A DNA stretch of 29,018 nt from a virus: the IMG/VR virus record IMGVR_UViG_3300018465_000004, positions 1-29,018 of that record; one strand, 5' to 3'. The position numbers were made by a program, and so were the translations under genes. Positions 2,964-24,121 of this stretch are shown in pieces; position 1 is the stretch's first letter; each line of letters starts with the position of its first letter. The notes under the pieces were generated by a model. It made no database searches. It was not told the origin of the DNA and saw only the letters and a program-made list of their open reading frames with translations.

Positions 2964-3650
2964 GTGGACACCGAGGCGCTCATCAACACCCACCTCGGCC
3001 TGGCCCACTCCCTGGCCCTCCAGGTCTGGCGCACCGCCCCGCACGCCCTGGACTTCGACGAGCTGCGCGCGATCGCCAACCTCGGCCTGGTCGCCGCCGC
3101 GGTGCGCTGGGAGCCCTACTGCATCGAGAATGACTTCAGCCCCGAGGCCCTGGAGTACTTCAAGCCGTTCGTGGTCCGCCGCGTCTACGGCGCCTTGATC
3201 GACGCCAGCCGCCAGGCGGACTGGGCCACCCGAAGCCTCCGTACCCGGGCCAAGGCACTCCAGGAAGCCGGCCAGGACAAGGGTTTGTCCCACGCCGAAC
3301 TGGCCGAGCGGACCGGGATGAGCATCAAGGAGGTCCGCGCCACCGTCCGGGACATGGCGCAGCGGCCCGTCTCCCTGGAAGGGGAGGAGATCGAGCCCAG
3401 CTCCCGGCAGAACGTCGAGTCCTCCGTCATCACCCAGACCGTGCTCAACAGCGTGGTCGTCGCCATCCGCGGCCTGCCCAGGGACCAGCAGGCCGTGGTC
3501 GCCCTGCACTACCACCGCGGCCTCCAGCTCCAGGAGGTCGCCAAGACCATGTCCATCACCGAATCCCGCGCCTCCCAGCTGCACGCCGAGGCCGTCCTGG
3601 TCATCCACCGGGCGATGGTCAGCGCCGCCGAAGACCACGACCAATGCTGA
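2964..3650 (+). CDS. Sigma-70 family RNA polymerase sigma factor, WhiG/FliA (sigma28)-like
   Basis: Region 2 RRVYGALIDASRQADWATRSLR resembles WhiG RGAMIDELRALDWIPRSVR; region 3 ELAERTGMSIKEV; region 4 LQEVAKTMSITESRASQLH. Confidence 0.88.
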   Translation: MDTEALINTHLGLAHSLALQVWRTAPHALDFDELRAIANLGLVAAAVRWEPYCIENDFSPEALEYFKPFVVRRVYGALIDASRQADWATRSLRTRAKALQEAGQDKGLSHAELAERTGMSIKEVRATVRDMAQRPVSLEGEEIEPSSRQNVESSVITQTVLNSVVVAIRGLPRDQQAVVALHYHRGLQLQEVAKTMSITESRASQLHAEAVLVIHRAMVSAAEDHDQC

Positions 3651-4051
3651 CCCCGGCCGAGAAGCAGGCCGGACGGCTGTTCCGCGCCGCGGAGGAAGAA
3701 GTACTCACACGGTCCTTCCTGGAAGACCCGCCGACCTACACCGTGCTGCCGGTGTCCGGGCAGTACCGGCACGAGTGCCCCCGCCGGCAGGGCCGCTCCA
3801 CAGCGCTGAGCCTGCACGAGGTGTACGTCCGGTCCCCACAGACCGACATCGCTGAACCGGACGGAAAGACCACAGTTCCCGCCGGCCGGTTCGCGTTCAT
3901 CTTCCGTGAGGGCCGCTGCCGGTTCTGCGGCCAGATAGCCCGCAGCAACCGGGGCCGACTTGTTGACGCAAGTCAGCGTCATCCGTTGCTCGGCAGGGTA
4001 ATTGACCGGGCAGGCCCGATAGAACCAGATGGTTCTGCGCCCGGACCTTGA
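3644..4051 (+). CDS. Hypothetical protein (HxC...CxxC, possible Zn binding)
   Basis: Overlaps the sigma gene stop; GC3 bias. Confidence 0.65.
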   Translation: MLTPAEKQAGRLFRAAEEEVLTRSFLEDPPTYTVLPVSGQYRHECPRRQGRSTALSLHEVYVRSPQTDIAEPDGKTTVPAGRFAFIFREGRCRFCGQIARSNRGRLVDASQRHPLLGRVIDRAGPIEPDGSAPGP

Positions 4052-4061
4052 GGAGAAGAAC

Positions 4062-4199
4062 ATGGCTGACAAGACCGACGCTGGGCACGAGTCGACGTGG
4101 GGCGCCAGCGAGGCCAAGAAGATCAAGTGGCAGGAAACCAAGGGCAAGGCCGTCCGCAAGGCGACCGAAAAGGCCAATGAGGAGCGCGACAATGCCTGA
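4062..4199 (+). CDS. Small charged protein, 45 aa (MADKTDAGHESTWGASEAKKIKWQETKGKAVRKATEKANEERDNA)
   Basis: GAGGAG RBS before ATG 4062; not in the ORF track because of its size. Confidence 0.6.
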   Translation: MADKTDAGHESTWGASEAKKIKWQETKGKAVRKATEKANEERDNA

Positions 4200-4386
4200 C
4201 CGCAACCGGAACCCCGACGACGCCGCAGAGAACCGCAACCCCAACGAGGACCAGCACGACGCTGAAGGCGGCAGCCACGGCACTGAGCCGGGCACCGGTA
4301 ACGAGCCGGGTGGCGACACCTACGGCGGAGGCCCTGGCGACCCGGTCCCCGGCGGAATCAACCAGACCGGCTCCGCGGGTCGCTAG
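4192..4386 (+). CDS. Small low-complexity Gly/Pro/Asp/Asn-rich protein, 64 aa
   Basis: GAGGAG RBS before ATG 4192; overlaps the previous ORF. Confidence 0.6.
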   Translation: MPDRNRNPDDAAENRNPNEDQHDAEGGSHGTEPGTGNEPGGDTYGGGPGDPVPGGINQTGSAGR

Positions 4387-4390
4387 CCAA

Positions 4391-4416
4391 GCGGAAACCG
4401 TGACCCCGTCACGGTA
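4391..4416 (+). promoter_or_regulatory. Recurring motif copy (GCGGAAA-N14-CGGTA)
   Basis: Intergenic, upstream of the operon leading to dnaB. Confidence 0.6.
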
Positions 4417-4454
4417 GAAGCAGGCACCAGCCCCGTACGGAAAGGCCCGGAGCA

Positions 4455-4796
4455 GTGACCCAAATCCATCGCATCCCCGCTCCGAGCCTCCCCTCTGTAC
4501 CCCAGGTCAGGCAGAAGATGCCAGACCCGTTCCGCCGCCCCCGCATCGACCTCGACGGCGCCCGCCACGAGCGGCGGGAATGGCGTCACATCCTCGCCTC
4601 CGACATCCGCACCGGTGACATCGTCCCGGGCATCGGCCGGGTCCACACCGTCGACGAAGACCTCAGTGTGCTGTCCTCCCCGGACATCGCCACCACCAGC
4701 TGGACGATCGCCGTCACCGGCGGCGTCAACAACCGCCGCGTCTTCAACGGCCAAGAACTGGTGATGGTGTTCGCCGCCGTTGGGACCGAAAGGTGA
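4455..4796 (+). CDS. Hypothetical protein
   Basis: GGAG RBS; coupled to the next ORF. Confidence 0.65.
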   Translation: MTQIHRIPAPSLPSVPQVRQKMPDPFRRPRIDLDGARHERREWRHILASDIRTGDIVPGIGRVHTVDEDLSVLSSPDIATTSWTIAVTGGVNNRRVFNGQELVMVFAAVGTER

Positions 4797-5059
4797 CCAG
4801 CCTGCTCCTCGCGCAGGGCGAGCACTACTACCTGTCCACTGCCTGCCTGCACGGCAAGCACGACTACTGCGTGGCCGCGATCGTCACCGACGAAAACTTC
4901 GTAGCCCTCAGCACGGAGGAGACAGTTAGTTTCGCGACCGTCGGTCGCCGCAAGAAGCCGTCCGAGTGCAAGTTCTGCGACGCGAAATGCATCTGCCCCT
5001 GCCACCGCCCCGCGGAGCGGCAGCCAGACATCACGTCCAGCTTGACCGACCTGACGTGA
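4793..5059 (+). CDS. Small Cys/His-rich phage protein (YLSTACLHGKHDYC...CKFCDAKCICPCH)
   Basis: GTGA overlap; metal-binding motif pattern. Confidence 0.7.
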   Translation: MTSLLLAQGEHYYLSTACLHGKHDYCVAAIVTDENFVALSTEETVSFATVGRRKKPSECKFCDAKCICPCHRPAERQPDITSSLTDLT

Positions 5060-5259
5060 GCGAAACCCGCTACGGGTTCACCTGGGGTCCGGCAACAGTC
5101 GAACGCGTCACGCGCATCGAACGGCCCAACGGCACCTACCGGATCCTGCGGGTCACCACCGGGTGCCCGTCGCAGGCTCTGGACATCTACATCTCCCCGA
5201 CCGGCCGGTCGGTCCGGGTGTTCCGCAGCGGCAGCGAACTCAAGACGGGGGACTGTTGA
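5056..5259 (+). CDS. Small phage hypothetical protein (ETRYGFTWGPATVER...IYISPTGRSVRVFR)
   Basis: GTGA and TTGA overlaps at both ends. Confidence 0.65.
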   Translation: MSETRYGFTWGPATVERVTRIERPNGTYRILRVTTGCPSQALDIYISPTGRSVRVFRSGSELKTGDC

Positions 5260-6698
5260 GCACATCCTTCGACCACGGGGAAACCCTGCTCGCCGCGATC
5301 ATCCCGGACCGACGCGACCTGCTCGACACCGCGCTGCGCCACCTCACCCAGGAACACTTCACCGACCCGGTCCAGCGCAACATGTTCCTGCTGCTGGACC
5401 GCTATGCCGAAGTCACCGGCGCCATCCTCACCCGCAGTGCGCTGCTCGACCTGCTGCGCACCAACCGCGCCGACGCCGGCAAGGTAGCCCAGTACCAGGA
5501 GATCTACGACCTGCTCGCCGGAAAGCCCGCCGACGAGGCCGACTTCCGGTGGAGTCTGACCCAGCTGCGGGAGCTGGCCGCCGAACGCGCGACCGGTGAG
5601 GCGCTGACCTACGGCATGCAGATCCTGACCCGCGGCGCCGACGGGGACAAAGGCGAGACACTGCGCGGGCACGTCGACGCGCGCACCCAGATCCTGCAAC
5701 GCTTCGCTGAGATCGACCGCAACCTGTCCATGCAGGAAGCCCCCGAAGGCGACATGCGCGAAGAAGGCGACGACATGCTCGCCGACTACGCCGCCCGCAA
5801 ATCCGCCCGCACCAACGGGCGGGGCACCGGAATCATGTTCGGCATCCCCAGCCTCGACGAGAAGATCAACGGCATCCTGCCCGGGGAACTCGGACTCGTC
5901 GCCGGCTACACCTCGGAGGGCAAGACCTCCGCCGTCGTCCAGCTCGCCTGGAACGCCTCGGTGAACCAGGGCCGCAACGTCGTGGTGCTCACCACCGAGA
6001 CCTTGCGACCCCAGGTACGGCGCCGACTCATCGCCCGCCACTCCTGCCTGGAGCACTTCGGCATCGACGGCGGTCTCAACTCACGGCTCATCCGCCAGGG
6101 CAACCTCGACGCCGAGCAGGAGCGCCAGCTCGCCGCGGTCGTCGCTGACTTCACCCGCAACCCCGGCTACGGACACTGCTACCTGGTCCAGGTCCCGCGG
6201 GCGGCGTCGATCGGCTACATCGAGTCCAAACTGGTGCGCATCCAGCGGATGTTCCACATCGACCTGGCCATCGTGGACTACCTGGCCCTGCTGCGCCCCG
6301 ACCGGCGCCGGGCCACCGACCGGGAAGAACTCGGCGGCAACCTCAAGGAAGCCAAGCAGCTCGCCACCACCTTCAACGATGGCGCCGGCATCCCATTGAT
6401 CTCCCCGTGGCAGGTCAACCGGTCCAACCGGGAGCTGGCCGAGAAGTGCGGCTACTACACGGCCCAGTCGTTGTCGGAGACCGCGGAGGCGTCCAACAGC
6501 CCGGACCTGATCGTCACCCTGCTCGCCCCGTTGGACAACGACAAGCGGATTTGCACCCTGAAGATGCAGGTGCTGAAGAACCGCGACGGCGAAAAGGTCA
6601 GCGGCCTGGAGGTCCAGGTCGACTACGCGACCAGCCGGTTTGCCCTGCCCGCCCAGCGCCGCGAGCTGTTCGGCGGAAACGACCTGCTCGGCCTGTAG
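5256..6698 (+). CDS. dnaB: DnaB-like replicative helicase
   Basis: GIPSLDEKINGILPGELGLVAGYTSEGKTS (Walker A), IVDYLALL (Walker B), QVNR, KNRDGE; start set at the TTGA overlap. Confidence 0.9.
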   Translation: MSTSFDHGETLLAAIIPDRRDLLDTALRHLTQEHFTDPVQRNMFLLLDRYAEVTGAILTRSALLDLLRTNRADAGKVAQYQEIYDLLAGKPADEADFRWSLTQLRELAAERATGEALTYGMQILTRGADGDKGETLRGHVDARTQILQRFAEIDRNLSMQEAPEGDMREEGDDMLADYAARKSARTNGRGTGIMFGIPSLDEKINGILPGELGLVAGYTSEGKTSAVVQLAWNASVNQGRNVVVLTTETLRPQVRRRLIARHSCLEHFGIDGGLNSRLIRQGNLDAEQERQLAAVVADFTRNPGYGHCYLVQVPRAASIGYIESKLVRIQRMFHIDLAIVDYLALLRPDRRRATDREELGGNLKEAKQLATTFNDGAGIPLISPWQVNRSNRELAEKCGYYTAQSLSETAEASNSPDLIVTLLAPLDNDKRICTLKMQVLKNRDGEKVSGLEVQVDYATSRFALPAQRRELFGGNDLLGL

Positions 6699-6706
6699 GG
6701 GCGAGC

Positions 6707-6733
6707 GCGGAATCCGAGCCGTCCTCACCGGTA
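6707..6733 (+). promoter_or_regulatory. Recurring motif copy (GCGGAAT-N15-CGGTA)
   Basis: Ends 9 nt before the bldC ATG. Confidence 0.6.
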
Positions 6734-6742
6734 TGGGAGGGT

Positions 6743-6949
6743 ATGACGAAATTGAACCAGCCCGAGCGCCTGCTCACCCCGGCTGAGGTCGCCGCCCTGT
6801 TCCGGGTGGTCACCAAGACCGTGACCAGGTGGCAGACCTCCGGCAAGCTCACCGCGGTACGGACCCTGGGTGGGCACCGCCGCTACCGGGAATCGGAGGT
6901 GCGGGCGCTGCTGATGCACAACCCGCACATCGCCGACCCGCAGCAGTGA
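6743..6949 (+). CDS. bldC: BldC-family (MerR-like HTH) transcriptional regulator
   Basis: LLTPAEVAALFRVVTKTVTRWQTSGKLTAVRTLGGHRRYRESEVRALL closely follows Streptomyces BldC (LLTPAEVATMFRVDPKTVTRWAKAGKLTSIRTLGGHRRYREAEVRALL). Confidence 0.9.
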   Translation: MTKLNQPERLLTPAEVAALFRVVTKTVTRWQTSGKLTAVRTLGGHRRYRESEVRALLMHNPHIADPQQ

Positions 6950-7551
6950 ATCGTCGGGACCGGCGTGGGCCGCCCTCGCCGGTCACCGTCGCCAACGAGC
7001 AGGTTTCCATCCTGGCCGCCTGTCAGCTAATCGGGATGGACCTGCCCGACCACCTCGCCTACGGCCGCAACCCCAAGATCTACTGCCCGTTCGGCGAGCT
7101 GTACCACGTGGACTCCGGCGCTGAGGCCGCCATGCGGATCTACGTCGAAAGCAACCACCTGTGGTGCTTCGCCGGCTGCGGCTACTTCAGCCCGGTCAGC
7201 CTCGTCGCCCGCGCATTCGACCTGCCCCACCGGGTCGCCGCGGACGAGCTGCTGGAGCGCGCCGGCATCCGACCGCCGACCCCGGACGAGGTGTGGCGCT
7301 CCGCCGTCGGGCACCACGAGCCGCCCGACCGGGACCTGCTCGCCGAGGCGCTCAAGACCTTCTGCCGCCGGCAGGATCCCGGCTGGGACGACACCCAGTT
7401 CCACCCCGGGGTCGCCCCGGTGCTCAGCCGCTGTCTCGCCCTGCTCGACCACGTCGACTCCGACGAGGCCGCCGCACAATGGCTCTCCGGTTGCAAGGAG
7501 GCGATGTCCCGGACTCTGGCCGTCCGGAGGACTATGGACACGCCTAGCTAG
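6946..7551 (+). CDS. CHC2 zinc-finger (DnaG primase Zn-binding domain) protein without TOPRIM
   Basis: CPF-x4-H-x-D...WCFAGCG pattern; GTGA overlap with bldC. Confidence 0.75.
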   Translation: MNRRDRRGPPSPVTVANEQVSILAACQLIGMDLPDHLAYGRNPKIYCPFGELYHVDSGAEAAMRIYVESNHLWCFAGCGYFSPVSLVARAFDLPHRVAADELLERAGIRPPTPDEVWRSAVGHHEPPDRDLLAEALKTFCRRQDPGWDDTQFHPGVAPVLSRCLALLDHVDSDEAAAQWLSGCKEAMSRTLAVRRTMDTPS

Positions 7552-7598
7552 GCGCTAGGGTTGTGCACAGTACCTCGCACCCTAAGGAGTCGTGACCT

Positions 7599-7877
7599 AT
7601 GGCCCGAGCGCCCGGAACGCTGCACAACACCTCGACCGCGGCAGGCATCAACGTCAGGCCGTTGGAGGACTGGCTCACCTTCGAGGAGGTCGCCCAGTTG
7701 TTCGGGATCACCCGTGGAGGCGTCGCCCATGCGGTCTGGCACTCGCAGGTCTTCGACTTCGATCGGGACGTCCGCGTGGTCTCCCGGATCTTCGTCGTGC
7801 GCAGGAGCGCCGTCATGCGGGAGAAGGCCCGTCGCGAGGCGGAGCGCGCGCAGACGGTCGCCGCGGAACGAGCCTAA
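7599..7877 (+). CDS. HTH DNA-binding protein
   Basis: AAGGAG RBS; WLTFEEVAQLFGITRGGV helix-turn-helix. Confidence 0.7.
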   Translation: MARAPGTLHNTSTAAGINVRPLEDWLTFEEVAQLFGITRGGVAHAVWHSQVFDFDRDVRVVSRIFVVRRSAVMREKARREAERAQTVAAERA

Positions 7878-7904
7878 AATCCCGCCAGAAAAGTTGGCCG
7901 CAGA

Positions 7905-7930
7905 GCGTAAAAGCCGCACGTGCCGCCGTA
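7905..7930 (+). promoter_or_regulatory. Recurring motif copy (GCGTAAA-N14-CCGTA)
   Basis: Intergenic, upstream of ORF 7975. Confidence 0.5.
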
Positions 7931-7974
7931 GAAGAGGGCGAGGTTGTTTTACGTCAAACAGGAGGTAACACACG

Positions 7975-8196
7975 GTGGCTAAGGTCAGGCTCGGCGACAC
8001 GGTTCGCTACACCGATGGTGCCGGTTTCGAGAAGGCGGCGCTCGTCGTCGGTACCCGGCGCTCGGTCCAGGACGGGACGGCGATCAAGCGTCCCGAGAAG
8101 GGCAGCGCGAACCTGCGGATCTACAGCCCGTCCGGGCAGGTCTACACGCGGGAGAACGTCCCCCAGGGCGACGGGCCGCGCACCTTCGCTCTCTGA
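7975..8196 (+). CDS. Small beta-rich phage hypothetical protein
   Basis: AGGAGG RBS; strong GC3 bias. Confidence 0.75.
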   Translation: MAKVRLGDTVRYTDGAGFEKAALVVGTRRSVQDGTAIKRPEKGSANLRIYSPSGQVYTRENVPQGDGPRTFAL

Positions 8197-8239
8197 GCAG
8201 CACTATCCGAGTGTGCTGACGGACATACTCGGAACACAA

Positions 8240-9121: not shown

Positions 9122-9514
9122 TTGTCGCGTAGAACTGTCATCATGCTTACCGACGACCTTGACGGCGGAGACGCTGATGAGACCGTGAGCTTCTCGATCG
9201 ACGGCATTTTCTACGAGATCGATCTGTCGGAGAAGAACGCCGGCAAGATGCGGGGAGCCCTGGAGAAGTACATGGGGGTCGCCCGGCGGATGCCCAAGAA
9301 CCACGTTCCCGGGCAGCGTCGGGGCGCGCCGCCCCGGATGCCGTACGTGCCGGCTCAGGCCGGTCCTGCACGGCCGGCTGTGACCGACAAGGAGCAGAAT
9401 CGCGCCATCCGCGAATGGGCAGCGGGCAAGGGTCTCGTCGTGTCCGACCGGGGCCGGATCAAGCAGGAGATCGTCGACCGGTACATGGCGGAGGCAGGCG
9501 TCAGGAGCAGTTGA
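9122..9514 (+). CDS. lsr2: Lsr2 nucleoid-associated protein
   Basis: LTDDLDGGDADETVSFSIDGIFYEIDLS dimerisation domain; IREWA...VSDRGRI AT-hook domain. Confidence 0.95.
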   Translation: MSRRTVIMLTDDLDGGDADETVSFSIDGIFYEIDLSEKNAGKMRGALEKYMGVARRMPKNHVPGQRRGAPPRMPYVPAQAGPARPAVTDKEQNRAIREWAAGKGLVVSDRGRIKQEIVDRYMAEAGVRSS

Positions 9515-10146: not shown

Positions 10147-10172
10147 GCGGAAAAGCCCAAGATCCCGCGGTA
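10147..10172 (+). promoter_or_regulatory. Recurring motif copy (GCGGAAA-N14-CGGTA)
   Basis: Ends 9 nt before the phosphoesterase GTG. Confidence 0.6.
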
Positions 10173-10181: not shown

Positions 10182-11114
10182 GTGCGACTTTTCATTGCGG
10201 GGGACACCCACGGCAACAACTCGTTCTGGGACTGGTACCTGCTGCCCCGGGCCAAGCTGCACGCGGCCGACCGGATCGTCCAGTGCGGCGACTTCGGCTT
10301 CTGGGAGCACGCGCCCAGCGGGGTGGAGTACCTCGACCTGCTGGAGCAGTCCGCGGCCGAAGCGGACCTGACCATCTACGCCCTGCACGGCAACCACGAC
10401 AACTGGTCGCTGGTGATGCAGCGCTACGGCACCGACCGCGACGACGAAGGCTTCGTGCGGGTCCGGCCCCACATCCGCTACATCCCGCAGGGCCACGTCT
10501 GGACCTGGGAGGGCACCCGGATGCGGGCCTTCGGCGGCGCCTACTCCATCGACAAGCAGTGGCGGCTGGATCTGGAGGCAAAGCGCAACAGGCAGGCCCT
10601 GGCTGTAGAGGAACACCGCCGCAGCGCCGGTCGCAAGCCCAAGCCGGTCATCGACCACACCGGCACCGTCTGGTTCCCGGACGAGGAGATGACCGACGCC
10701 GAGTTCACCGAGCTGATGATCGCCGATTGCCAGGTGCTCGACGTCGTGTTCAGCCACGACCGGCCCCGCCGGGCGGGCTGCGGACTCGATCTGAAGAACG
10801 AGCCGCTGTGCCTCCCGAACCAGGACCGGCTCGACCTTGCCCTGGCCGCCCACCGTCCACAGTGGTGGTTCCATGGGCATCTGCACCACAGCTACAAGGA
10901 CCGCGTCGACGTCGGTGACACCGTCACCACCATCGTCGGGCTTGCCTGCGACGACAAGGCGGCCATGCGGTTCTGGCGGCCCTGGCACAGCTGGTGCGCC
11001 CTGGACATCGTCGAGGGAAGCCCACCGACCTATTACGCCTCACACGTCCTGGACGAGGCCGTGGCCACGAAGAAGGCGCGCGCCGCCGCCCACAGCACCG
11101 AAGGAGAGCACTGA
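10182..11114 (+). CDS. Calcineurin-like metallophosphoesterase
   Basis: GDTHG, CGDFG, HGNHD, FSHD and HGHLHH motifs. Confidence 0.9.
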   Translation: MRLFIAGDTHGNNSFWDWYLLPRAKLHAADRIVQCGDFGFWEHAPSGVEYLDLLEQSAAEADLTIYALHGNHDNWSLVMQRYGTDRDDEGFVRVRPHIRYIPQGHVWTWEGTRMRAFGGAYSIDKQWRLDLEAKRNRQALAVEEHRRSAGRKPKPVIDHTGTVWFPDEEMTDAEFTELMIADCQVLDVVFSHDRPRRAGCGLDLKNEPLCLPNQDRLDLALAAHRPQWWFHGHLHHSYKDRVDVGDTVTTIVGLACDDKAAMRFWRPWHSWCALDIVEGSPPTYYASHVLDEAVATKKARAAAHSTEGEH

Positions 11115-11115
11115 C

Positions 11116-11586
11116 ATGGGGGACCGGCTCGGCCTGGTCGACATCGACGGGGTCCTGGCGAACACCGCCCACCGCGACCACTACGCCGTGCACCGCGACT
11201 GGGGGACCTACTTCTCTCTCGCCGGCCAGGACACCGTCTTCCGGCAGGGCATCGAGCTGGTGGAGAACCTGGAGATCGCCGGCTGGGACATCGCCTACCT
11301 CACCGGCCGGCGTGAGGACATGCGCGAGGTCACCCGCAAATGGCTGAAGAGGTTCGGGTTCCCGAAGTTTCCGCTCATCATGCGGATGATGGAGGACCGG
11401 ACCAAGCTGGCCCATCTCAAGGCCGGCGTCATCTCCGACGCCCTGCTGCTCTACCCCGACGGGGTGGCGCTGTGGGACGACGATCCCTGGGTGGTCGAGG
11501 AGGCCAACAAGGTGAAGACCGGAGCTGGTCGGCAGACGACGTGGTACGTCAAGCCGACCAGCATCGTCCGGCGTGGCCAGTCGTAG
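11116..11586 (+). CDS. HAD-family phosphatase (polynucleotide 3'-phosphatase/PseT C-domain-like)
   Basis: DIDGVLA motif I, YLTGR motif II, conserved K, WDDD motif IV; AAGGAG RBS. Confidence 0.85.
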   Translation: MGDRLGLVDIDGVLANTAHRDHYAVHRDWGTYFSLAGQDTVFRQGIELVENLEIAGWDIAYLTGRREDMREVTRKWLKRFGFPKFPLIMRMMEDRTKLAHLKAGVISDALLLYPDGVALWDDDPWVVEEANKVKTGAGRQTTWYVKPTSIVRRGQS

Positions 11587-13150: not shown

Positions 13151-13852
13151 ATGGTGGAGATCGCCAAAGGCGGCGTGGACTACGTTTCCGCGCCGGCGGA
13201 TTACGCTGCCTTTTTTCGGCAGTACCGCTCATATGTCATCACGCTCGTCAAGAAAGTCGGAATTGATCCGCAGCACGCGGAGGACGTCGCCAGCGAGATC
13301 ATGCTCCGGTTCATGGAACGCGACTTCCTGAAGGAGTTCGACCCGACCCTGACCTTCGTCTACCAAGGCGAGATCCGTCCGGCCCGGTTCAAGAGCTTCC
13401 TCTCCCGGTTCGTGCTCATCTACGCCCGTGGGCACCGGGACAAGCAGCTACGGCAGATGACCCGCGAGCTGCTGCTCGTCGACAGCCCGCAGATCGAGGA
13501 CGGCACCTCCTGGATGGACGGCTACCAGACCGTGCCCGGCGCTGACGAGGACGTCCTGGGCCGCCTGGCCGAGGGCGAGCGGATCGCCGAGGTCCGCGCC
13601 TACCTGTCGACCATTCCGAAGCGGAGCCGGTTCGACACCTGCGACCTGATCAAGCTCTTCGAGCAGGTGCTGATCCAGCTCCGGGAGAAGGGCTACGAGA
13701 AGCCGAACGTGTCGGAGTTGCAGCGGCACTTCGCCATCTCCTCTACCGCGGCCCACTCGTGGCTGTGGTGGCTGCGCAGCAACATCGCCACCGCACTCGG
13801 TCGTCCACTACCCGCCAAGCGGGTCCGCGCCACCACGAGGACTGCGTCATGA
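13151..13852 (+). CDS. ECF-like sigma factor
   Basis: Region 2 YAAFFRQYRSYV...PQHAEDVASEIMLRF...FDP...FKSFLSRFV; C-terminal HTH VSELQRHFAISSTAAHSWL; no region 3. Confidence 0.7.
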   Translation: MVEIAKGGVDYVSAPADYAAFFRQYRSYVITLVKKVGIDPQHAEDVASEIMLRFMERDFLKEFDPTLTFVYQGEIRPARFKSFLSRFVLIYARGHRDKQLRQMTRELLLVDSPQIEDGTSWMDGYQTVPGADEDVLGRLAEGERIAEVRAYLSTIPKRSRFDTCDLIKLFEQVLIQLREKGYEKPNVSELQRHFAISSTAAHSWLWWLRSNIATALGRPLPAKRVRATTRTAS

Positions 13853-14385
13853 CCGCCGCCGTACTGGAACGGGTCGAGGCACCGGCTGAGCCGGTCAAGG
13901 CCGGCATCTCCATCCCGAAGCTCGCCTGGATGGCGGGGGTGATCGACATGAAAGGCCGCACCCGGCGGGTCATCCACATCAGCCGGCGCAACCCGCTCTA
14001 CATCCTCCAGGTCGAGACCTCCAACCTGGTCGTCGCCCGTCAGCTCTGCAAGCTCACCGGGACCCGGGTCGAGTACAGCGAGGCGAAGATCCTGGAGGTG
14101 CGGTCCCGGCGCGGGTGCGCGGAGCACTGCCCGGAACCGCACCAGCACGTGACCCCGGTGCTGCCCAAGGTCGGCCGCTGGCACATCTCCGGAGCCGGGG
14201 CGGCCATCGTTCTGCACAACCTGATGCCCTACTTCGGCGGCGAGACCGGGAACCTGAAGCAGTTCTGCGTTGACGTCTTCGACAACCTCCCGCTGGGCGG
14301 GCGCGGCCGGCACGCCGTCGACCAGAGCATCAAGCGGCTGTCCGGGCTCGGCTGGGACGTCTCGCCGCTGGTGAAGCAGGCGTGA
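13849..14385 (+). CDS. LAGLIDADG-fold protein, probably nuclease-inactive
   Basis: LAWMAGVIDMKG motif; RWHISGAGAAIVLHNLMPYF C-terminal pattern; coupled to neighbours on both sides. Confidence 0.65.
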   Translation: MTAAVLERVEAPAEPVKAGISIPKLAWMAGVIDMKGRTRRVIHISRRNPLYILQVETSNLVVARQLCKLTGTRVEYSEAKILEVRSRRGCAEHCPEPHQHVTPVLPKVGRWHISGAGAAIVLHNLMPYFGGETGNLKQFCVDVFDNLPLGGRGRHAVDQSIKRLSGLGWDVSPLVKQA

Positions 14386-15191
14386 TCCCGATCGGGCACG
14401 CCACTGTCCGCCAGCAGCTGGAGCGCGAGCTGCCCCCGGTTGCCCTGCTGCGCGGGCCCCGCAGCGTCGGCAAGTGGACCCTGGCGATGCACCTGGTGGA
14501 ACACCACCGCATCGCCAGGGTCGACCGGTTCCTCCACGATGGACCGCTCGGCGTGCTGACCGTGCGGGCGATCATCGACTTCGTCGGCATCGCCCCGTTC
14601 GGCAAGCGGAAGATCAGCGTGCTCACCCTCGACGGTGCCAGCGAGCCGGCGTTCAACGCGCTGCTCAAGGTGCTGGAGGAGCCGCCGGTCACGGCACGAT
14701 TCGTGCTCACCGCCGCCGGCCCGTTGCCGGCCACCGTGCTCAGCCGCGCCCAGATCTACCAGCTCGGTCTGCTCGCCGACGCCGAGCTGCGGCAGATCCT
14801 CATCGCGCAGGGCGTCCCCGCCGGGACCGCCGTGCGGGCCGGCGCCCTCGGTCGGGGTCAGGTCGACGTCGCGCTGTACGCCGCCCGCGGGCAAACCGAC
14901 CGGTACCGCACCACCGTGCTCACCCTGCTACGCGCCCTGGCTACCCACGATCACGAGCTGTTCGACCGGGTCTTCACCAGCGACTGGGAGGAACCCTGCC
15001 GGGAACTGCTCTGGCGGTGGGTGACCGAAGCCGTCTCCGGCCAGTGGAGCCTGTTCGGCCCGGCTGACGGCTGCGGTCTGCACACCCGGCGCGAACAGCT
15101 GCACCAGATGGTGTACCGGCTCAGCGCGTTGCCCGCCGCACATACCCGATTAGGAGTTCGTGTCGCGCTCGAACCGTTTCTCGCGACCTAG
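14382..15191 (+). CDS. holB: DNA polymerase III delta'-like clamp-loader subunit
   Basis: LLRGPRSVGKWTLA; AFNALLKVLEEPP; LPATVLSRAQ. Confidence 0.85.
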   Translation: MIPIGHATVRQQLERELPPVALLRGPRSVGKWTLAMHLVEHHRIARVDRFLHDGPLGVLTVRAIIDFVGIAPFGKRKISVLTLDGASEPAFNALLKVLEEPPVTARFVLTAAGPLPATVLSRAQIYQLGLLADAELRQILIAQGVPAGTAVRAGALGRGQVDVALYAARGQTDRYRTTVLTLLRALATHDHELFDRVFTSDWEEPCRELLWRWVTEAVSGQWSLFGPADGCGLHTRREQLHQMVYRLSALPAAHTRLGVRVALEPFLAT

Positions 15192-18876: not shown

Positions 18877-19046
18877 GGACGCTCACCATCTGGATCGACC
18901 GGTACAAGGATGCACTCGCCCTGGTGCGCCGGCAGGAGGCACAGATCGACGTCCTGAAGATGGTCTTCGACGAAGTCATGGACCTGCTGTCGCCCGAACA
19001 GCTGAACCAGGTCGAAGCGATCCTGCGGCGCCAGCCCGATCCGTAA
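18873..19046 (+). CDS. Small coiled-coil protein, 57 aa
   Basis: ATGA overlap. Confidence 0.55.
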   Translation: MRTLTIWIDRYKDALALVRRQEAQIDVLKMVFDEVMDLLSPEQLNQVEAILRRQPDP

Positions 19047-19132
19047 TGTCGGGAACAGAAGCGGGACCCCCGAGAAGAAGGGCCATGCCGATGACCTAGC
19101 ACAACGATCGCCTCCAAACGGCTGCATTGGCA

Positions 19133-19173
19133 GAGCCCCGCGCGAATCGACCCCCCGTCAGCGCGCGGGGCTC
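19133..19173. terminator. Inverted repeat between convergent genes
   Basis: GAGCCCCGCGCG-N17-CGCGCGGGGCTC. Confidence 0.6.
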
Positions 19174-19181
19174 GTCCATGT

Positions 19182-19484
19182 TCAGCGCCGCGTCGGTACC
19201 CCGGCAGGCGCCTGCGGAGCGGGGTCGTCCCGCGAGGACACTCCCAGGTAGAGCGCCACCGAGACGCCCATGACCACCACCGCCACCTTGAACGCCCGCC
19301 TGGTCCGCTGCCATGCCGTCCGGCGCATCCCCGGCAGCAGCTTCCTCGCACCGAAGTAGCTCTTCCAGGCCCCGTACGCCCAGGTCAGAACAACTCCCAG
19401 CAACAGGAACAGCACAGCGGTGAGTACATGCGACGACGTGAGCAGCGGATCCACTCCACCCACAGTAGTCAGATGATCACTCAA
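19182..19484 (-). CDS. Two-TM membrane protein
   Basis: Two hydrophobic helices separated by a basic loop. Confidence 0.6.
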   Translation of the reverse strand: MSDHLTTVGGVDPLLTSSHVLTAVLFLLLGVVLTWAYGAWKSYFGARKLLPGMRRTAWQRTRRAFKVAVVVMGVSVALYLGVSSRDDPAPQAPAGVPTRR

Positions 19485-19597
19485 TGGAAGTGACCTTCAC
19501 CCATTCGGGGGATCGGACAAAGTTCACCGGCGGACAACAGACCGATCTCAGTAACGTCGCAGACGCCTCGGAAGTACACACGGTTCCAACCCACAGG

Positions 19598-19631
19598 CGA
19601 GCGGCCCATCCCGATCGGGATGGGCCGCTCG
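19598..19631. terminator. Perfect 34-bp palindrome
   Basis: CGAGCGGCCCATCCCGATCGGGATGGGCCGCTCG, 22 nt past the stop of 19654..20415(-). Confidence 0.7.
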
Positions 19632-19653
19632 TTTGTTCCCGCAGAGATCAGGT

Positions 19654-20415
19654 CTAAAGGAAGGCCGGTAGTTCCTCGTCATCGGCAATCGGAACCGCAG
19701 GCTCGCCGGTGGGGTGGCAGTTCAGCATCGGGGCCCTCGCCCACGCACGCATCAGCCAATGGCGGTTGACGCGCTTCTTGCCCGAGTCCCACCACGAAGT
19801 GCTGTCCAGGTCGGTACTCCAGCCCAGCAGCCAGGTCTCCAGGTCACCATTCACCAGCAGGTCACCGATGACGTTGCACTGCTCACAGCAGATCGGGCAG
19901 CAGCCCGCCAACCGCAAGTCGTTGGGATTGGAGTCGGGACTGTCGAACCACAGGTGATCCAGCGCGGCGTGCACAAGCTGCCCGATCCGACGCCGCTGGA
20001 GATCGGTCATCCTGGTGATGTCGCCCGGCCGGCGGTAGCCGTACATGGCGAACGGCGCGGCGGGAAAGTCGATGGTGCGCGGCAGCCGCTCCCACCAGTC
20101 GTACGGGTGGTCCCGGTAGAACTGGTACAGCCAGCCGAGGAACGGCTCGAAGAGCGGGCAGACCCAGATCTGCTTCTTGTTGAGGTCGGCCCTGGCGAAC
20201 CCGCCGAGGACGAACTTCGCCCCTTCGCCGGTCTGGAGGTCAAACAACCAGACATGCTCGGCAGTCCACCCAAGGCTGCGGAGGAGCTGGCTGCTCTCGT
20301 TGCCCGGGTACAGGCCCGGCTCCGTCCACTCGGCGTCGGTGTACAGGCCGACGCCGAACTTGCCGTAGTTCCCCCTTCCGGGGCCGTGGCCAGCCTCGAT
20401 GATCTTCAGTTCCAC
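19654..20415 (-). CDS. Two-domain phage hypothetical protein
   Basis: GAAAGG RBS; N-domain DLQTGEGA...WVCPLFEPFL; C-domain GCCPICCEQC. Confidence 0.75.
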   Translation of the reverse strand: MELKIIEAGHGPGRGNYGKFGVGLYTDAEWTEPGLYPGNESSQLLRSLGWTAEHVWLFDLQTGEGAKFVLGGFARADLNKKQIWVCPLFEPFLGWLYQFYRDHPYDWWERLPRTIDFPAAPFAMYGYRRPGDITRMTDLQRRRIGQLVHAALDHLWFDSPDSNPNDLRLAGCCPICCEQCNVIGDLLVNGDLETWLLGWSTDLDSTSWWDSGKKRVNRHWLMRAWARAPMLNCHPTGEPAVPIADDEELPAFL

Positions 20416-20440
20416 AGTGGACCTTTCTAGCCGCGGGCAG

Positions 20441-20695
20441 TCATGACTGGTCAGACTGACGGGCTGCTGTGCGTTCCTTGTTCCAGTCTCGGGCGACGGG
20501 CTGGATGACCTTGATGAACAACAGGGTGAGCAGCGCTCCGACCACCAGACCGGTATTGAACTCGCCCAGGCGGTGGCGAAGCGTCAGGAGCACAGCGAGC
20601 AGGACGAGGTAGATCAGCAGCACCGCGGCCGTAGGCCGCAGCCAGAACGTGATCTTGTTCAGAAGCCTAATCACGGAGCGCTGCCACCTTCTCAA
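20441..20695 (-). CDS. Two-TM membrane protein
   Basis: Hydrophobic helices. Confidence 0.6.
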   Translation of the reverse strand: MRRWQRSVIRLLNKITFWLRPTAAVLLIYLVLLAVLLTLRHRLGEFNTGLVVGALLTLLFIKVIQPVARDWNKERTAARQSDQS

Positions 20696-21302
20696 CGGGC
20701 CAGCCGATGTACCCGGCCACCTCTTCAGTCGGGACGCCTGGTGTGCTCACCCACTCCTGCACCGCGATGGCAAGGCCGGGCGGGAGCCCGTCGGGTATCT
20801 CCACCTCGACCTCCTCGGGCTCGACTCCGTCGATGTGGAGCCAGAGCCCATCCGGGTCAAGCTGCTGAACGATGGCGTCGTACTCGTCATTCGTGCCGCC
20901 GCCTTCGGCGATGAGCGCCCCCGTGCGCCAGTCGGTGATCTTCCATTGCTCGTCCGGGTCCTCGGTGACGTCGATGAGCCGACGACCCGCGGCCTCCAGC
21001 TCGGCCACCTTCGCGGCGTGCGCATCGTGGTAGACGCCGTTGGCCTCCAGCAGCCTGATGACGTACTCGTGGATCGGGTCTTCTGTTGAGCCGGTCGTGA
21101 TGAGCGTCGGCTCTCCAGCCGGCCGCTTGGCTGTCCTTCGGCTGAGGTCGCTCAGTACGGCGGCCACGAACAGGACCATGGCGATCCCCACGGTCACCCC
21201 GTGGTTGAAGTGGTCGTATACCAGTCCGCCCACGACGATGGCACTCGTCAGTCCGAGGAAGCTCAGCACAATGGTGAGCAGCCACCGGTCCCGGTGTGAC
21301 AT
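20667..21302 (-). CDS. Membrane-anchored protein (2 TM plus acidic domain)
   Basis: GGAG RBS before ATG 21302 (MSHRDRWLL...). Confidence 0.6.
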   Translation of the reverse strand: MSHRDRWLLTIVLSFLGLTSAIVVGGLVYDHFNHGVTVGIAMVLFVAAVLSDLSRRTAKRPAGEPTLITTGSTEDPIHEYVIRLLEANGVYHDAHAAKVAELEAAGRRLIDVTEDPDEQWKITDWRTGALIAEGGGTNDEYDAIVQQLDPDGLWLHIDGVEPEEVEVEIPDGLPPGLAIAVQEWVSTPGVPTEEVAGYIGWPVEKVAALRD

Positions 21303-21324
21303 TGCATCTCCAGCCGCTATGAGG

Positions 21325-21372
21325 GGTAGCGGCACTGCGTCCATCCCATGAACGTATCGCAGTGCCGCTACC
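21325..21372. promoter_or_regulatory. 15-bp inverted repeat in a divergent intergenic region
   Basis: GGTAGCGGCACTGCG-N18-CGCAGTGCCGCTACC. Confidence 0.5.
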
Positions 21373-21434
21373 ACTGTCAGTGATTCCACTAACGAGTGTC
21401 GCTTGCATACGTTCGTAGACGTATACTTGGCGAC

Positions 21435-21662
21435 GTGATCGATCGCGACAGCCCAATGACCTTCGTCGAGCAGATCGCGCGGGAACTAGCGCGACGGATC
21501 GACGAAGGTATCTACACAGGCAGGCTGCCGACCGAACCCGAGCTGATGTTCGAGAGCGGGTGCGCCAGGTCGACCGTCGGAAAAGCCGTGGGACGGCTTG
21601 TCGCCGCCGGCATCGTCGTAAGGTCCAAGCGGGGGACCTTCGTCAAGAAGCAGGAACCGTAG
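21435..21662 (+). CDS. Stand-alone GntR-family winged-HTH regulator
   Basis: EQIARELARRI..G...RLPTEPEL......RSTVGKAVGRL...GIV...RGTFV; TATACT ends 7 nt before the GTG, suggesting a leaderless mRNA. Confidence 0.85.
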   Translation: MIDRDSPMTFVEQIARELARRIDEGIYTGRLPTEPELMFESGCARSTVGKAVGRLVAAGIVVRSKRGTFVKKQEP

Positions 21663-21667
21663 CCGGC

Positions 21668-22090
21668 CTAGGCTGGCGAGGTTGCCAGTTCGGGGTCCAC
21701 CTCTTCGAAATCAGGGTCCACCTCTTCGAACTCCAGGGCTAGCATGCCCGCATCGCGGTCGCTCCGGTCGGGGTCCGCGATCCCGGTGAGGAGGTACTCC
21801 TTGTCGGCCCGGAAGATGAAGTGCCCGCCGCAGGCCGGATCCAGGTCATTGGCCGGAGAGATGCTGATCCGCCAGCCGCCGTACCCGAGCCTGCGGGCCT
21901 GCCCGGCGACGAGCCACAAGTCGTCCCAGTTGGTGACAGGCATCGGCGTCCAGCCCTCAAGTCCTTCCGCTTCTGCCTTCTCCGTCCACTCCAGCTCGGT
22001 GTACAAGATCTTCAGGCGCTGCTCGTCGCGTTCCCCATCCGGCTTCGCCTCCTCCGCCTTGATCTCTTCGCGGATTGAATCCGATGTCAC
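21668..22090 (-). CDS. Acidic hypothetical protein
   Basis: GGAGG RBS before GTG 22090. Confidence 0.6.
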   Translation of the reverse strand: MTSDSIREEIKAEEAKPDGERDEQRLKILYTELEWTEKAEAEGLEGWTPMPVTNWDDLWLVAGQARRLGYGGWRISISPANDLDPACGGHFIFRADKEYLLTGIADPDRSDRDAGMLALEFEEVDPDFEEVDPELATSPA

Positions 22091-22128
22091 GTGTTCCTCC
22101 CCATCGATGTGTCTACTGTGGAGCAGGC

Positions 22129-22380
22129 TCAGTTCAAGCCTGCCGAAGATTCGGTTAGCCAGCGCAGCCACCCCAGGAACCGGTAGTACATGTCCCCGCA
22201 GGGCTCGGCCGGCAGGTCTTGCACGGCTTCGATGAACAGCGAGCCCATCATGAGGAACAAAGTGATCCGGGCCGAGCCTGGGAACTCCGCCAAGAGTTGC
22301 GCCCGCCGGGTGTCACATGGCCATGGATGCCCGCAGTCCATACACGTCCAGTTCGGCCGTTCGTAACGGTGTGCGCTCAT
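22129..22380 (-). CDS. Small H...WxCxxCxxxWPC protein of actinomycete XRE/DUF397-associated cassettes
   Basis: HRYERPNWTCMDCGHPWPC...YYRFLGW. Confidence 0.7.
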   Translation of the reverse strand: MSAHRYERPNWTCMDCGHPWPCDTRRAQLLAEFPGSARITLFLMMGSLFIEAVQDLPAEPCGDMYYRFLGWLRWLTESSAGLN

Positions 22381-22490
22381 GACGACATCCACTCGCCCAC
22401 AACCAGGCCCACGGCGAGGGCCAGGAGATGCAGAACCAGCAGCACGGTGCGGAACAGGTCCCGTGCAGAGTCGTTCGGGATGACGGCCAT
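22377..22490 (-). CDS. 37-aa single-TM peptide (MAVIPNDSARDLFRTVLLVLHLLALAVGLVVGEWMSS)
   Basis: TGATG and ATGA coupling on both sides; not in the track. Confidence 0.55.
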   Translation of the reverse strand: MAVIPNDSARDLFRTVLLVLHLLALAVGLVVGEWMSS

Positions 22491-22792
22491 CAACTGTTCC
22501 GAACCAGCTTCAGGCCGGGCTCCGCCGTGATCCTCCTGGCGTGAAGGGGCGTCAGGTGGCGTGCGGCCCGGGTCTGGTCAAGCGGTACACGCATCACCAG
22601 GAACGGCGGCTGCTGCACCGGGATCCCGGTGAAGGGGTCGAGGACGACACCCCGGATATGGACCGCTGTACGGGCCTCGTCGGCGAACCCGAGCAGGTCG
22701 ACCACCCGCAGCGGGAAGCCGGCGGCCTGATGGGCGAGCCGCCATTGCTCGGGCCAGATCCACAACTCTGTCCCCGTGGCGATCTCATCCAT
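22490..22792 (-). CDS. Hypothetical protein
   Basis: AGGAG RBS before ATG 22792. Confidence 0.6.
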   Translation of the reverse strand: MDEIATGTELWIWPEQWRLAHQAAGFPLRVVDLLGFADEARTAVHIRGVVLDPFTGIPVQQPPFLVMRVPLDQTRAARHLTPLHARRITAEPGLKLVRNS

Positions 22793-23058
22793 GACCGTGA
22801 CTCCTGAAGCTGGGTGTGGGGGGCGCACCGGCCGCTTCGAGGGGGCGGAGTCGGCCGCCGTCTAGGACGGGGAGCTTCGTCCCAGAAACGACCGGTGCGC
22901 GTCCATTTGCCGTCAGCCACAGCTCGGATCTTGTCACTACCCGTGGCCGGTGTCCGGCATGCAGTGAGGCTCCCACACCAAATCTGCATTCGCAAGTATC
23001 CTCATCGAATCGATGAAGCAGTTTGCCGAGCGCAACTCAAACGGGGGACACTGCCGGC

Positions 23059-23916
23059 ATGGCGACCAAGGCGAGCCCGACCCTGCGCAGACGACAGCTC
23101 GGCCGCGAACTCAAGGCTGCGCGCGAAACTTCCAGCCTGACGCCGCAGGACGCGGCCGACGTCCTCAGCGCGAGCGTGTCCACTGTGTACCGGATCGAGT
23201 CCGGCGGAGTCGGCCTCAAGGCGATCGAGCTGACCGCGCTGCTCGACCGGTACGGCATCACCGACCAGGAGGTGCGGACGCGCCTCGAACGCCTCCGTGC
23301 CGAGGGCCGGCAGCGCGGCTGGTGGTCCGGCTACCGCTCCGCCCTCAAGCCGAGCTACCAGACCTACATCGGCCTGGAGGACAGCGCCGTCGCGATCCGC
23401 AGCTTCGCCGGCATCGTCATCCCCGGCCCGTTGCAGACCGCCGCGTACGCCCGTGCCGTCATGATGACGGCGCAGCCTCCGCTCACGGACCCGGTGATCA
23501 GTCAGCGCGTCGAGGTTCGGATGCAGCGGCAGGGGCTCATCACCCGAGCTGAGGAACCGCTGCGCTTCCACGTCGTGCTCGATGAGGCCGCCGTACAGCG
23601 CCGGGTCGGCGGCGACGCCGTCTGGCAGGCCCAGCTTGAACATCTCGTCGAGCTGGCCAAGCTGCGGCACATCACCGTCCAGGTGCTGCCGTTCGACGTC
23701 GGCACCTTCGCCGAGTCAGCCGGCGAGTTCAGCATCCTGGACTTCGACGAAGGAGGTCCAGTTGCGTACGTAGAGTCACTCTCGGGTGATCTGTACGCTG
23801 AAGGCGATGGCGTCGAACGCTTCCTCCTTCACTTCGACGCGCTGCGCACGGCGGCCTTACCACCGACCAGGTCCGTTGGCATGATCGAGGGGCTGTTGCA
23901 CAGCGAGGAACCCTAG
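23059..23916 (+). CDS. XRE-family HTH plus DUF5753 regulator (WhiJ/Scr1-like)
   Basis: SPTLRRRQLGRELKAARE, HTH, RGWWSGY, YIGLE, IPGPLQTAAYARA, VLDEAAV, VQVLPF, VAYVESL. Confidence 0.93.
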   Translation: MATKASPTLRRRQLGRELKAARETSSLTPQDAADVLSASVSTVYRIESGGVGLKAIELTALLDRYGITDQEVRTRLERLRAEGRQRGWWSGYRSALKPSYQTYIGLEDSAVAIRSFAGIVIPGPLQTAAYARAVMMTAQPPLTDPVISQRVEVRMQRQGLITRAEEPLRFHVVLDEAAVQRRVGGDAVWQAQLEHLVELAKLRHITVQVLPFDVGTFAESAGEFSILDFDEGGPVAYVESLSGDLYAEGDGVERFLLHFDALRTAALPPTRSVGMIEGLLHSEEP

Positions 23917-23926
23917 GGAGCACACG

Positions 23927-24121
23927 GTGGCACTGAACAGAATGATGAAGAAGAGCACGCGCAGTAACACCGATGGCGCGTGCGTCCGGGCCGGCTATGC
24001 CGATCCGGACTGCCGGACCGTCGCGATCGACGACTCCAAGAACCCAGGACCCCAACTGGTCGTCTCCGTTGCCGCGTTCGGCGACCTTCTCGACCGGATC
24101 AAGGAGGGCGAGCTGAGCTAG
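23927..24121 (+). CDS. DUF397 protein (BldB/Scr2-like)
   Basis: KSTRS...ACV...VAIDDSKNPGP; sits directly after the XRE gene. Confidence 0.85.
   Translation: MALNRMMKKSTRSNTDGACVRAGYADPDCRTVAIDDSKNPGPQLVVSVAAFGDLLDRIKEGELS

Follow-up and report, generated by a model that had tools for sequence, protein, structure and literature searches.

A host-like BldC, Lsr2 and two divergent sigma factors in the replication module of a large actinomycete phage

Regulatory genes at the locus

The IMG/VR record IMGVR_UViG_3300018465_000004 is a virus genome of 137.6 kb (137,600 bp) that is 100% complete by CheckV. We analysed bases 1–29018 of this record (29,018 nucleotides; hereafter the window). The DNA is 66.7% GC and the + strand holds nearly all genes. 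An original prediction had proposed that the window carries a parallel circuit of actinomycete developmental regulators, made up of a WhiG/FliA-like sigma factor (sigma-1), a near-canonical BldC, the nucleoid-associated protein Lsr2, a second sigma factor (sigma-2) of the extracytoplasmic function (ECF) type, a LAGLIDADG protein with a WhiA-like fold and a pair of XRE–DUF5753 and DUF397 genes. All six items are present as coding open reading frames (ORFs), and each of the regulator ORFs has a strong high-GC coding signature, with a GC content at third codon positions of 0.83–0.95.

Four of these genes, for sigma-1, BldC, Lsr2 and sigma-2, form an old, co-inherited, syntenic core of a replication and early-gene module. 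The gene order in nine relatives is SNF2 helicase, (HNH protein), sigma-1, DnaB, MerR-type helix–turn–helix (HTH) or BldC-like protein, Lsr2, metallophosphatase, sigma-2, (optional LAGLIDADG protein) and clamp loader. By tblastn, Lsr2 is found in all nine relatives and the BldC-like gene in eight of nine, and sigma-2 is found in each of the seven loci that extend as far as its position, two of which also carry the LAGLIDADG ORF. The expectation that the predicted regulators recur together in related phages is therefore borne out for the four core genes, which keep a fixed order, but not for the LAGLIDADG gene or the XRE/DUF397 pair, which are variable.

The four-gene block occurs in more than 100 related phages, which constitute a clade of large, uncultured phages of 110–140 kb. 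No deposited phage is close to this genome: a megablast search with 11.6 kb of sequence against 50,697 phage records gave no match. In IMG/VR a profile scan returned three loci, and a single-sequence pattern scan for sigma-1 gave no match.

A near-canonical phage BldC

The phage BldC (6743..6949, + strand) is a winged helix–turn–helix (wHTH) protein of 68 amino acids. It scores 90.1 bits on the BldC family model NF033787, over the curated cutoff of 77, where host BldC proteins score 105–107 bits, and it is 71–77% identical to host BldC. The alignment spans the entire core of the crystallised Streptomyces coelicolor protein (PDB 6AMA). Phage BldC matches only the HTH_17/MerR N-terminal domain and has no MerR coiled coil or effector domain, making it a stand-alone wHTH. 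When the residue roles listed by Schumacher et al. 2018 (PMC5859096) are read on the 6AMA alignment, all five residues that read bases or grooves are identical (K26, R30, H46, R47 and R48), as are nine of the ten residues of the head-to-tail interface (L11, E16, F21, R22, V23, W31, T42, L43 and G44), with I40V the exception. The description of this protein as a near-canonical BldC holds.

Seven of ten clade copies exceed the NF033787 cutoff (107.1, 101.8, 99.8, 97.2, 96.7, 90.1 and 86.3 bits). Two fall below it (75.9 bits in L060 and 51.2 bits in L034), and relative L057 has no detectable copy. The phage copies are mostly nearer to host BldC (66–87% identity) than to one another. The copy in relative L058 shows the sequence signature (TPGEVAAL...RTPGGHRRF) that marks a second paralogue of the hosts; this type-2 paralogue is present in Actinomadura, Nonomuraea and Actinorhabdospora, but in two Streptomyces genomes none scored above the cutoff. 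A maximum-likelihood tree places the L058 copy with the host type-2 paralogue (99/95 support), and monophyly of the phage copies is rejected by an approximately unbiased (AU) test, both with all rows included (p 0.0018) and with long branches removed (p 0.003). On this evidence, the BldC slot has been filled from hosts at least twice, from two paralogue lineages.

Actinomadura craniellae (genome G003; loci L036 and L041 and two more) has four BldC-family genes over the cutoff, at 107.5, 105.4, 89.8 and 89.7 bits.

Host BldC controls developmental genes and binds AATTNNNN(C) direct repeats cooperatively, and its recognition of DNA is by indirect readout (PMC5859096). The phage genome contains no AATT-N5-AATT pair or array and no phased 9–10 bp array. 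AATT is depleted genome-wide, with 122 occurrences observed against 179 ± 14 expected, which may reflect avoidance of AT-rich sites of the Lsr2 or BldC type.

Two divergent sigma factors

Sigma-1 (2964..3650, + strand) is a group-3, FliA/WhiG-like phage sigma factor that belongs to the clade core. Its best family is FliA_WhiG (TIGR02479), to which it aligns at full length through regions 2, 3 and 4 (positions 1–223 of the 224 in the model). The score of 102.7 bits is below the curated cutoff of 189.6. Calibrated on the genomes of five actinomycetes, this model gives 291–293 bits to true WhiG proteins of Streptomyces and 84–126 bits to many non-WhiG host sigma factors, and the latter range includes the score of sigma-1. 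The top PDB matches of sigma-1 are Escherichia coli FliA (9e-16) and Streptomyces venezuelae WhiG (2e-13). The nearest host sigma factor is WhiG (29% identity over 178 amino acids, E 5e-18), and among the other host sigma loci tested one matches at 6e-5 and the rest not at all. The label 'FliA/WhiG-like' is thus fair as to family and nearest host relative, but the score and the low identity point to deep divergence rather than to a captured whiG. No WhiG above the TIGR02479 cutoff was found in Actinomadura, Nonomuraea or Actinorhabdospora, in agreement with Chater and Chandra (PMC4255298). Sigma-1 has more than 120 homologues at 62–76% identity, many of them on contigs of 100–220 kb (for example 138, 137, 122, 119 and 221 kb).

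Sigma-2 (13151..13852, + strand) is also part of the clade core and is a divergent ECF-like (group 4) sigma factor. It is weak by sequence, scoring 23 bits on Pfam Sigma70_r2 against a cutoff of 24 and 18.7–18.9 bits on the ECF model TIGR02937, under the cutoff of 42.9; a profile built from six sigma-2 sequences had no match among PDB sequences. The AlphaFold model has a predicted local distance difference test score (pLDDT) of 88, and its top Foldseek matches are nearly all ECF sigma factors (Mycobacterium tuberculosis SigL and SigH, RpoE, AlgU and BldN), with a probability of 1.0 and approximately 200 aligned columns that cover both the sigma2 and the sigma4 domains. The predicted second ECF-like sigma factor is therefore recovered, as an ECF protein by modelled fold only and marginally by sequence. 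About 200 homologues of sigma-2 were found, all within the clade.

Because both sigma factors are conserved in fixed order inside the replication module, they are most likely long-standing phage transcription factors rather than a borrowed WhiG or BldN.

A recurrent ECF-type promoter motif

The phage genome carries a recurrent promoter-like motif of the overall form G(C)GGAAW-N14/15-CGGTA(G/T), which resembles ECF promoters in having a −35 element of the 'AAC' type. The exact pattern GCGGAAW-N14/15-CGGTA occurs at six sites in the whole genome and at none in shuffled sequences, and all six sites are on the coding strand upstream of genes. When one mismatch is allowed there are 16 sites against 1–6 expected. 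Unbiased dyad counts also find the CGGAA/CGGTA combination in seven intergenic segments and not at all in the coding background.

Three exact sites lie in the window on the + strand: GCGGAAA-N14-CGGTA at 4391..4416, GCGGAAT-N15-CGGTA at 6707..6733 and a further copy at 10147..10172. The second ends 9 nt ahead of the BldC ATG and the third 9 nt ahead of the metallophosphoesterase start, suggesting that both messages are leaderless or nearly so. A one-mismatch site (GCTGAAT-N15-CGGTA, 86..112, + strand) heads the operon of the SNF2 helicase, the HNH protein and sigma-1, and a variant (CGTAAA-N15-CGTAGAAG, 7906..7934, + strand) lies upstream of a small gene at 7975. Across the clade a cGGTAT −10 element is kept 9–10 nt ahead of the BldC ATG, preceded by a −35 element of GCGGAAT, CGTAAC, TGTAAC or CGCAAC, which can be summarised as G(G/T/C)AA(C/T). 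Further sites have CGTAAA or GTAACC followed by (C/T)GTAGAAG.

Since −35 elements of the 'AAC' type are typical of ECF sigma promoters, our guess is that sigma-2 is the likeliest reader of this motif. Promoters of the FliA/WhiG class have the consensus TAAA-N15-GCCGATAA. No promoter of this class was found on the phage genome, where the one exact GCCGATAA is on the opposite strand with no TAAA upstream. There is also no notable sigma-70-type early promoter at 11.5–13.3 kb. A weak variant of the motif precedes sigma-2, and this, together with the site at 86..112 that heads the sigma-1 operon, makes a cascade from sigma-2 to sigma-1 possible.

Lsr2, the LAGLIDADG protein and the XRE/DUF397 pair

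Lsr2 (9122..9514, + strand) has both its oligomerisation domain and its AT-hook DNA-binding domain, with passing scores on PF11774 (83.4 bits) and PF23359 (54.7 bits). The RGR AT-hook is present within 'SDRGRI', and Lsr2 domains in the PDB match the phage protein at 1e-13 and 1e-6. The identification as Lsr2 is therefore secure, but Lsr2 is a general nucleoid protein and not one that is specifically developmental.

The ORF at 13849..14385 (+ strand), which is sporadic in the clade, encodes a LAGLIDADG protein of 178 amino acids with a single I-CreI-like domain. Sequence searches of Pfam, NCBIfam, PHROGs and the PDB gave no match, and only a fold search succeeded. The AlphaFold model (pLDDT 90) retrieves I-CreI and I-CvuI at Z 10.4 (for I-CreI, 108 residues with a root-mean-square deviation of 3.5) and with a Foldseek probability of 1.0. 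The motif AGVIDMKG, for which the family consensus is AGVxDxKG, places a Lys at the position of the catalytic Asp. The family, for which Pfam offers no model, comprises 174 representative relatives or clusters. Its invariant C-x2-HC...H-x-H insert (C90, H93, C94, H98 and H100) falls in a low-confidence loop of the predicted structure, and this Cys/His cluster is possibly a zinc site in place of the lost active site.

The prediction that this protein has a WhiA-like fold is right about the LAGLIDADG fold and the loss of the catalytic acid. However, WhiA (8dy9_I) ranks only 34th in the fold search (Z 8.7, one domain aligned), among generic homing endonucleases. WhiA itself is about 300 amino acids long, with two degenerate LAGLIDADG domains ahead of a C-terminal HTH. 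As modelled, the phage protein lacks both the second domain and the HTH, and is not WhiA-like beyond the fold. It likewise differs from I-CreI in the Lys substitution and the Cys/His insert.

The XRE gene (23059..23916, + strand) encodes a WhiJ-type regulator with HTH_31 and DUF5753 domains (Pfam, 179.3 bits), and the DUF397 gene (23927..24121, + strand) encodes a small BldB-type protein (Pfam, 36.3 bits). The second gene starts 10 nt downstream of the first on the same strand, and the same order is found in at least 12 of 30 host loci, confirming the predicted domains and a host-like arrangement. The closest bacterial relatives of the XRE protein are about 42% identical and come from Actinorhabdospora, Phytomonospora, Nonomuraea and Actinomadura, all of which are mycelial, spore-forming actinomycetes; whiJ-like genes are restricted to actinomycetes with complex morphology (PMC4255298). 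These relatives are the best clue to host biology.

At three positions that are nearly invariant in the host consensus the DUF397 protein is changed, with K in place of W, R in place of E and D in place of R. Because BldB forms hetero-oligomers with its paralogues (PMC10294661), interference of the phage DUF397 protein with host BldB-family proteins is conceivable. The pair is accessory cargo, seen in this phage alone. It lies in a variable, partly reverse-oriented region beside the recombinases, and two relatives with completeness of 93% and 96% lack both DUF5753 and DUF397. Many host loci, though not all, have an adjacent third gene of the abaA-like (anti-sigma-like) kind; the ORFs that flank the phage pair have no Pfam or PHROGs match, so no such neighbour is seen. 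In the divergent region at 22.8–23.06 kb the repeats are short and unconvincing as operators.

In relative L059 an orphan DUF397 gene (L059:9356-9550) sits near sigma-1, flanked by the genes for the SNF2 helicase and the HNH protein, which suggests that DUF397 genes enter the clade at more than one place.

Neighbouring genes and variation in relatives

The window is the early or middle replication and transcription-control arm of an actinomycete phage. The conserved module starts with an SNF2-family helicase (1021..2676, + strand; Pfam SNF2-rel_dom 112 bits, plus Helicase_C) that is syntenic in nine of nine relatives, and continues with a small HNH-motif protein (2673..2963, + strand; Pfam HNH 22.5 bits). 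A DnaB-like replicative helicase (5163..6698, + strand; Pfam DnaB_C 75 bits) precedes BldC. A metallophosphoesterase (10182-11114) and a PNKP-type phosphatase (11116-11586), both identified by Pfam, follow Lsr2 in the module, which ends with a clamp-loader delta′-like protein (14382..15191, + strand; Pfam DNA_pol3_delta2 32 bits). The single PHROGs match in the window is at 25081-26052 (phrog_19090, function unknown, 106 bits), and approximately 35 further ORFs match neither Pfam nor PHROGs. ARAGORN detects no tRNA gene in the window. A 21-bp unit is repeated in 2.1 copies (92% match) at 21693-21738, within a block of reverse-strand genes.

At the window end lies the C-terminal part of a large serine recombinase (27953..29018, − strand), the catalytic domain of which is just beyond the window, and the next recombinase gene, for a tyrosine integrase, is at 30970-31434 of the genome. 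Given these two genes, the phage is probably temperate.

The module varies among relatives. L033 has an SNF2 helicase of 903 amino acids (L033:6246-8957), compared with the usual length of approximately 545, with a weak LAGLIDADG_3 match. This looks like an intein or an inserted homing endonuclease and suggests that mobile endonucleases circulate in the clade. Four relatives carry within the module a gene for an Acb2/Tad1-hairpin protein (an anti-CBASS/Thoeris sponge; L032:18504-18725, L034:17544-17765, L059:17434-17679 and L033:9801-10001); no Pfam-detectable equivalent is present at 11.6–13.1 kb of the window, a stretch of lower GC (63%). A HicA toxin gene and its partner lie inside the module of L058 on the reverse strand (L058:14054-14652), and three relatives have a dCTP deaminase gene after sigma-1 that does not occur in the window.

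Discussion

With modest confidence, we favour a reading in which the phage sigma factors run the phage's own programme, host-derived BldC and Lsr2 are part of the conserved module, and the LAGLIDADG protein and XRE/DUF397 pair are accessory. The two sigma factors would bring the core RNA polymerase of the host to promoters of the phage, with sigma-2 reading the recurrent ECF-type motif and sigma-1 probably serving another temporal class. BldC and Lsr2 would be DNA-architectural proteins of host origin that became fixed in the module. BldC would be made as a leaderless transcript from a phage-type promoter. Because its DNA-reading and multimerisation residues are kept, and because its slot has been refilled from two host paralogue lineages, it would most likely occupy host BldC sites, either alone or mixed with host BldC. 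Such occupancy could prolong a vegetative, phage-permissive state. Lsr2 may silence or counter-silence AT-rich DNA. The LAGLIDADG protein would be a decayed or domesticated relative of homing endonucleases, and the XRE/DUF397 pair would be strain-specific cargo of the lysogeny region, acting either as the phage's own switch or as a modulator of host WhiJ and BldB paralogues. The analysis shows the gene identities, the synteny, the promoter motif and the two origins of BldC, whereas the pairing of sigma factors with promoters and all consequences for the host are inferred. The possibility that the regulators serve the phage's own gene programme, which the original prediction offered as an alternative, is thus supported by the conservation of the module, the phage ECF-type promoter and the lack of a FliA/WhiG promoter.

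BldC is the principal finding. Host BldC delays development (PMC6428758). The host-like sequence of the phage protein, its capture from two lineages and the missing arrays favour, without proving, a protein that matches host BldC or its sites, and an effect of phage BldC on host development is plausible. Several observations count against the favoured reading. Two backbone or phosphate contacts are changed in the phage protein (D24V and K33T), and the BldC tree has only approximately 61 columns and includes long branches. As BldC recognises DNA by indirect readout (PMC5859096), the missing AATT arrays carry little weight. BldC is in a lytic replication module, and slow developmental timing may be irrelevant in a short lytic cycle. 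A search with the sigma-2 profile for a prophage copy in 401 sampled Actinomycetota genomes found none. The assignment of sigma-2 to the phage motif is a guess, and relatives do not keep the exact GCGGAAW-N14/15-CGGTA string but conserve only the −10 element and the AAC-like −35 element. A tentative extension, to which we give well under an even chance, is that this widespread clade of large, temperate soil actinophages maintains a host-matched BldC in a slot that is refreshed by repeated capture of the local host's BldC paralogue, that the phage sigma-dependent copy holds infected hyphae in a vegetative, phage-permissive state and that in this phage the WhiJ/BldB-type pair provides a second handle on the development of the host.

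The regulators may instead form a purely phage-internal circuit, in which all of them, including BldC and Lsr2, act on phage DNA only, in the timing of middle and late genes, in genome architecture and in replication, and their likeness to host proteins is a matter of descent. The position of the genes in the replication module and under a phage-type promoter is consistent with this, as is the behaviour of the closest phage counterpart that has been studied, the structurally BldC-like Gp36 of mycobacteriophage D29, which binds direct repeats in the phage genome, tunes phage expression and regulates phage rather than host genes (PMC12266134). MerR-type and Lsr2 domains each occur in more than 10% of actinophages, regardless of host development (PMC8612146), and the BldC-like gene has drifted in L034 and L060 and is undetected in L057. 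However, the phage has neither the AATT arrays expected of BldC-type sites nor phased 9–10 bp arrays, and the closeness of most copies to host BldC, together with their two paralogue sources, is more readily accounted for if a match to the host protein or its sites is important. We regard an exclusively internal role as possible rather than probable. It is far less probable that the BldC-like protein is an excisionase (a recombination directionality factor) for the phage integrase, and we would be surprised if it were. The protein does match the excisionase model TIGR01764 (33.1 bits against a cutoff of 28.8), Xis proteins have the same fold (PMC5859096, PMC12266134) and the phage has both a tyrosine integrase and a large serine recombinase. 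Yet the score on the BldC model is almost three times that on the excisionase model, the gene directly follows dnaB at a distance of 24 kb from the integrases, and the two kinds of gene are found apart, with BldC but no tyrosine integrase in genome G006 and a tyrosine integrase but no detectable BldC in genome G007.

A coordinated hijack of sporulation, in which the six genes act as a parallel circuit that delays or triggers sporulation, is the main reading of the original prediction and is unlikely. It draws on BldC being a true family member, on the restriction of WhiJ-type genes to morphologically complex actinomycetes (PMC4255298) and on the ability of BldB to hetero-oligomerise with paralogues (PMC10294661). 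There is also precedent in the Bacillus phages that carry homologues of sporulation sigma factors and alter dormancy (bioRxiv 10.1101/2021.11.12.468384), and Streptomyces development takes part in containing phage infection (PMC10117723). Against this, sigma-1 is below the FliA/WhiG cutoff and only 29% identical to WhiG, and the genera nearest to the phage XRE gene (Actinomadura, Nonomuraea and Actinorhabdospora) lack a WhiG that reaches that cutoff. The LAGLIDADG protein lacks the second domain and HTH of WhiA. In addition, no WhiB was found in this phage or in two relatives (three records). The variability of the XRE/DUF397 pair and the LAGLIDADG gene, the divergence of sigma-1 and the lack of WhiB indicate that the genes are not one co-inherited set. 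Membership of developmental families is limited to BldC and the XRE/DUF397 pair, and for four of the six items the developmental label reflects family resemblance only.

Several elements of this locus have counterparts in known systems. Host BldC of S. coelicolor and S. venezuelae (SCO4091; 6AMA, 6AMK; NF033787) is the same 68-residue wHTH, but the phage gene differs in lying directly after dnaB, in its phage ECF-type promoter, in being apparently leaderless and in the two altered contacts. D29 Gp36/L5 Xis and Giles gp81 are likewise small MerR-like wHTH proteins of phages, and D29 Gp36 binds its direct repeats cooperatively (PMC12266134). In sequence these proteins are far from BldC (45.9 bits and 45% identity for the Giles 'Cro'), whereas clade copies reach 107 bits, the level of host BldC. 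Actinophages have likewise adopted the host-type global regulators Lsr2 and WhiB (Sharma et al. 2021, PMC8612146), but here Lsr2 is in a fixed module with two sigma factors and BldC, and without WhiB.

The middle and late sigma factors of Bacillus phage SPO1 similarly retarget host core polymerase (PMC13401047). Some sigma factors of Bacillus phages resemble host developmental sigma factors and can alter dormancy (Schwartz et al. 2022); the present phage differs in having an Actinomycetota host, one FliA/WhiG-like group-3 sigma factor, one divergent ECF-like sigma factor and an ECF-type motif. WhiJ9–BldB9 and other XRE/DUF397 pairs of Streptomyces (PMC10294661, PMC10364602) have the same domains and gene order as the phage pair, which is set apart by its approximately 42% identity to any bacterial copy, the three changes in DUF397 and its location in the lysogeny region.

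Phages that encode sigma factors of their own and global regulators of the host type are already known (PMC8612146; Schwartz et al.; for SPO1, PMC13401047). The literature that we searched contains no report of a true BldC borne by a phage and none of a fixed module of two sigma factors, BldC and Lsr2. Relative to that literature, the new elements are the true phage BldC, its fixed slot in the module of a large uncultured clade and the evidence for its repeated capture. With their defined motif, the two sigma factors are candidates for use as a compact, orthogonal cascade of transcription in bacteria of high GC content. Should the captured BldC act on the regulon of the host, it would represent viral control of multicellular development in actinomycetes, and the phage copies would provide a natural set of BldC variants with which to dissect site choice.

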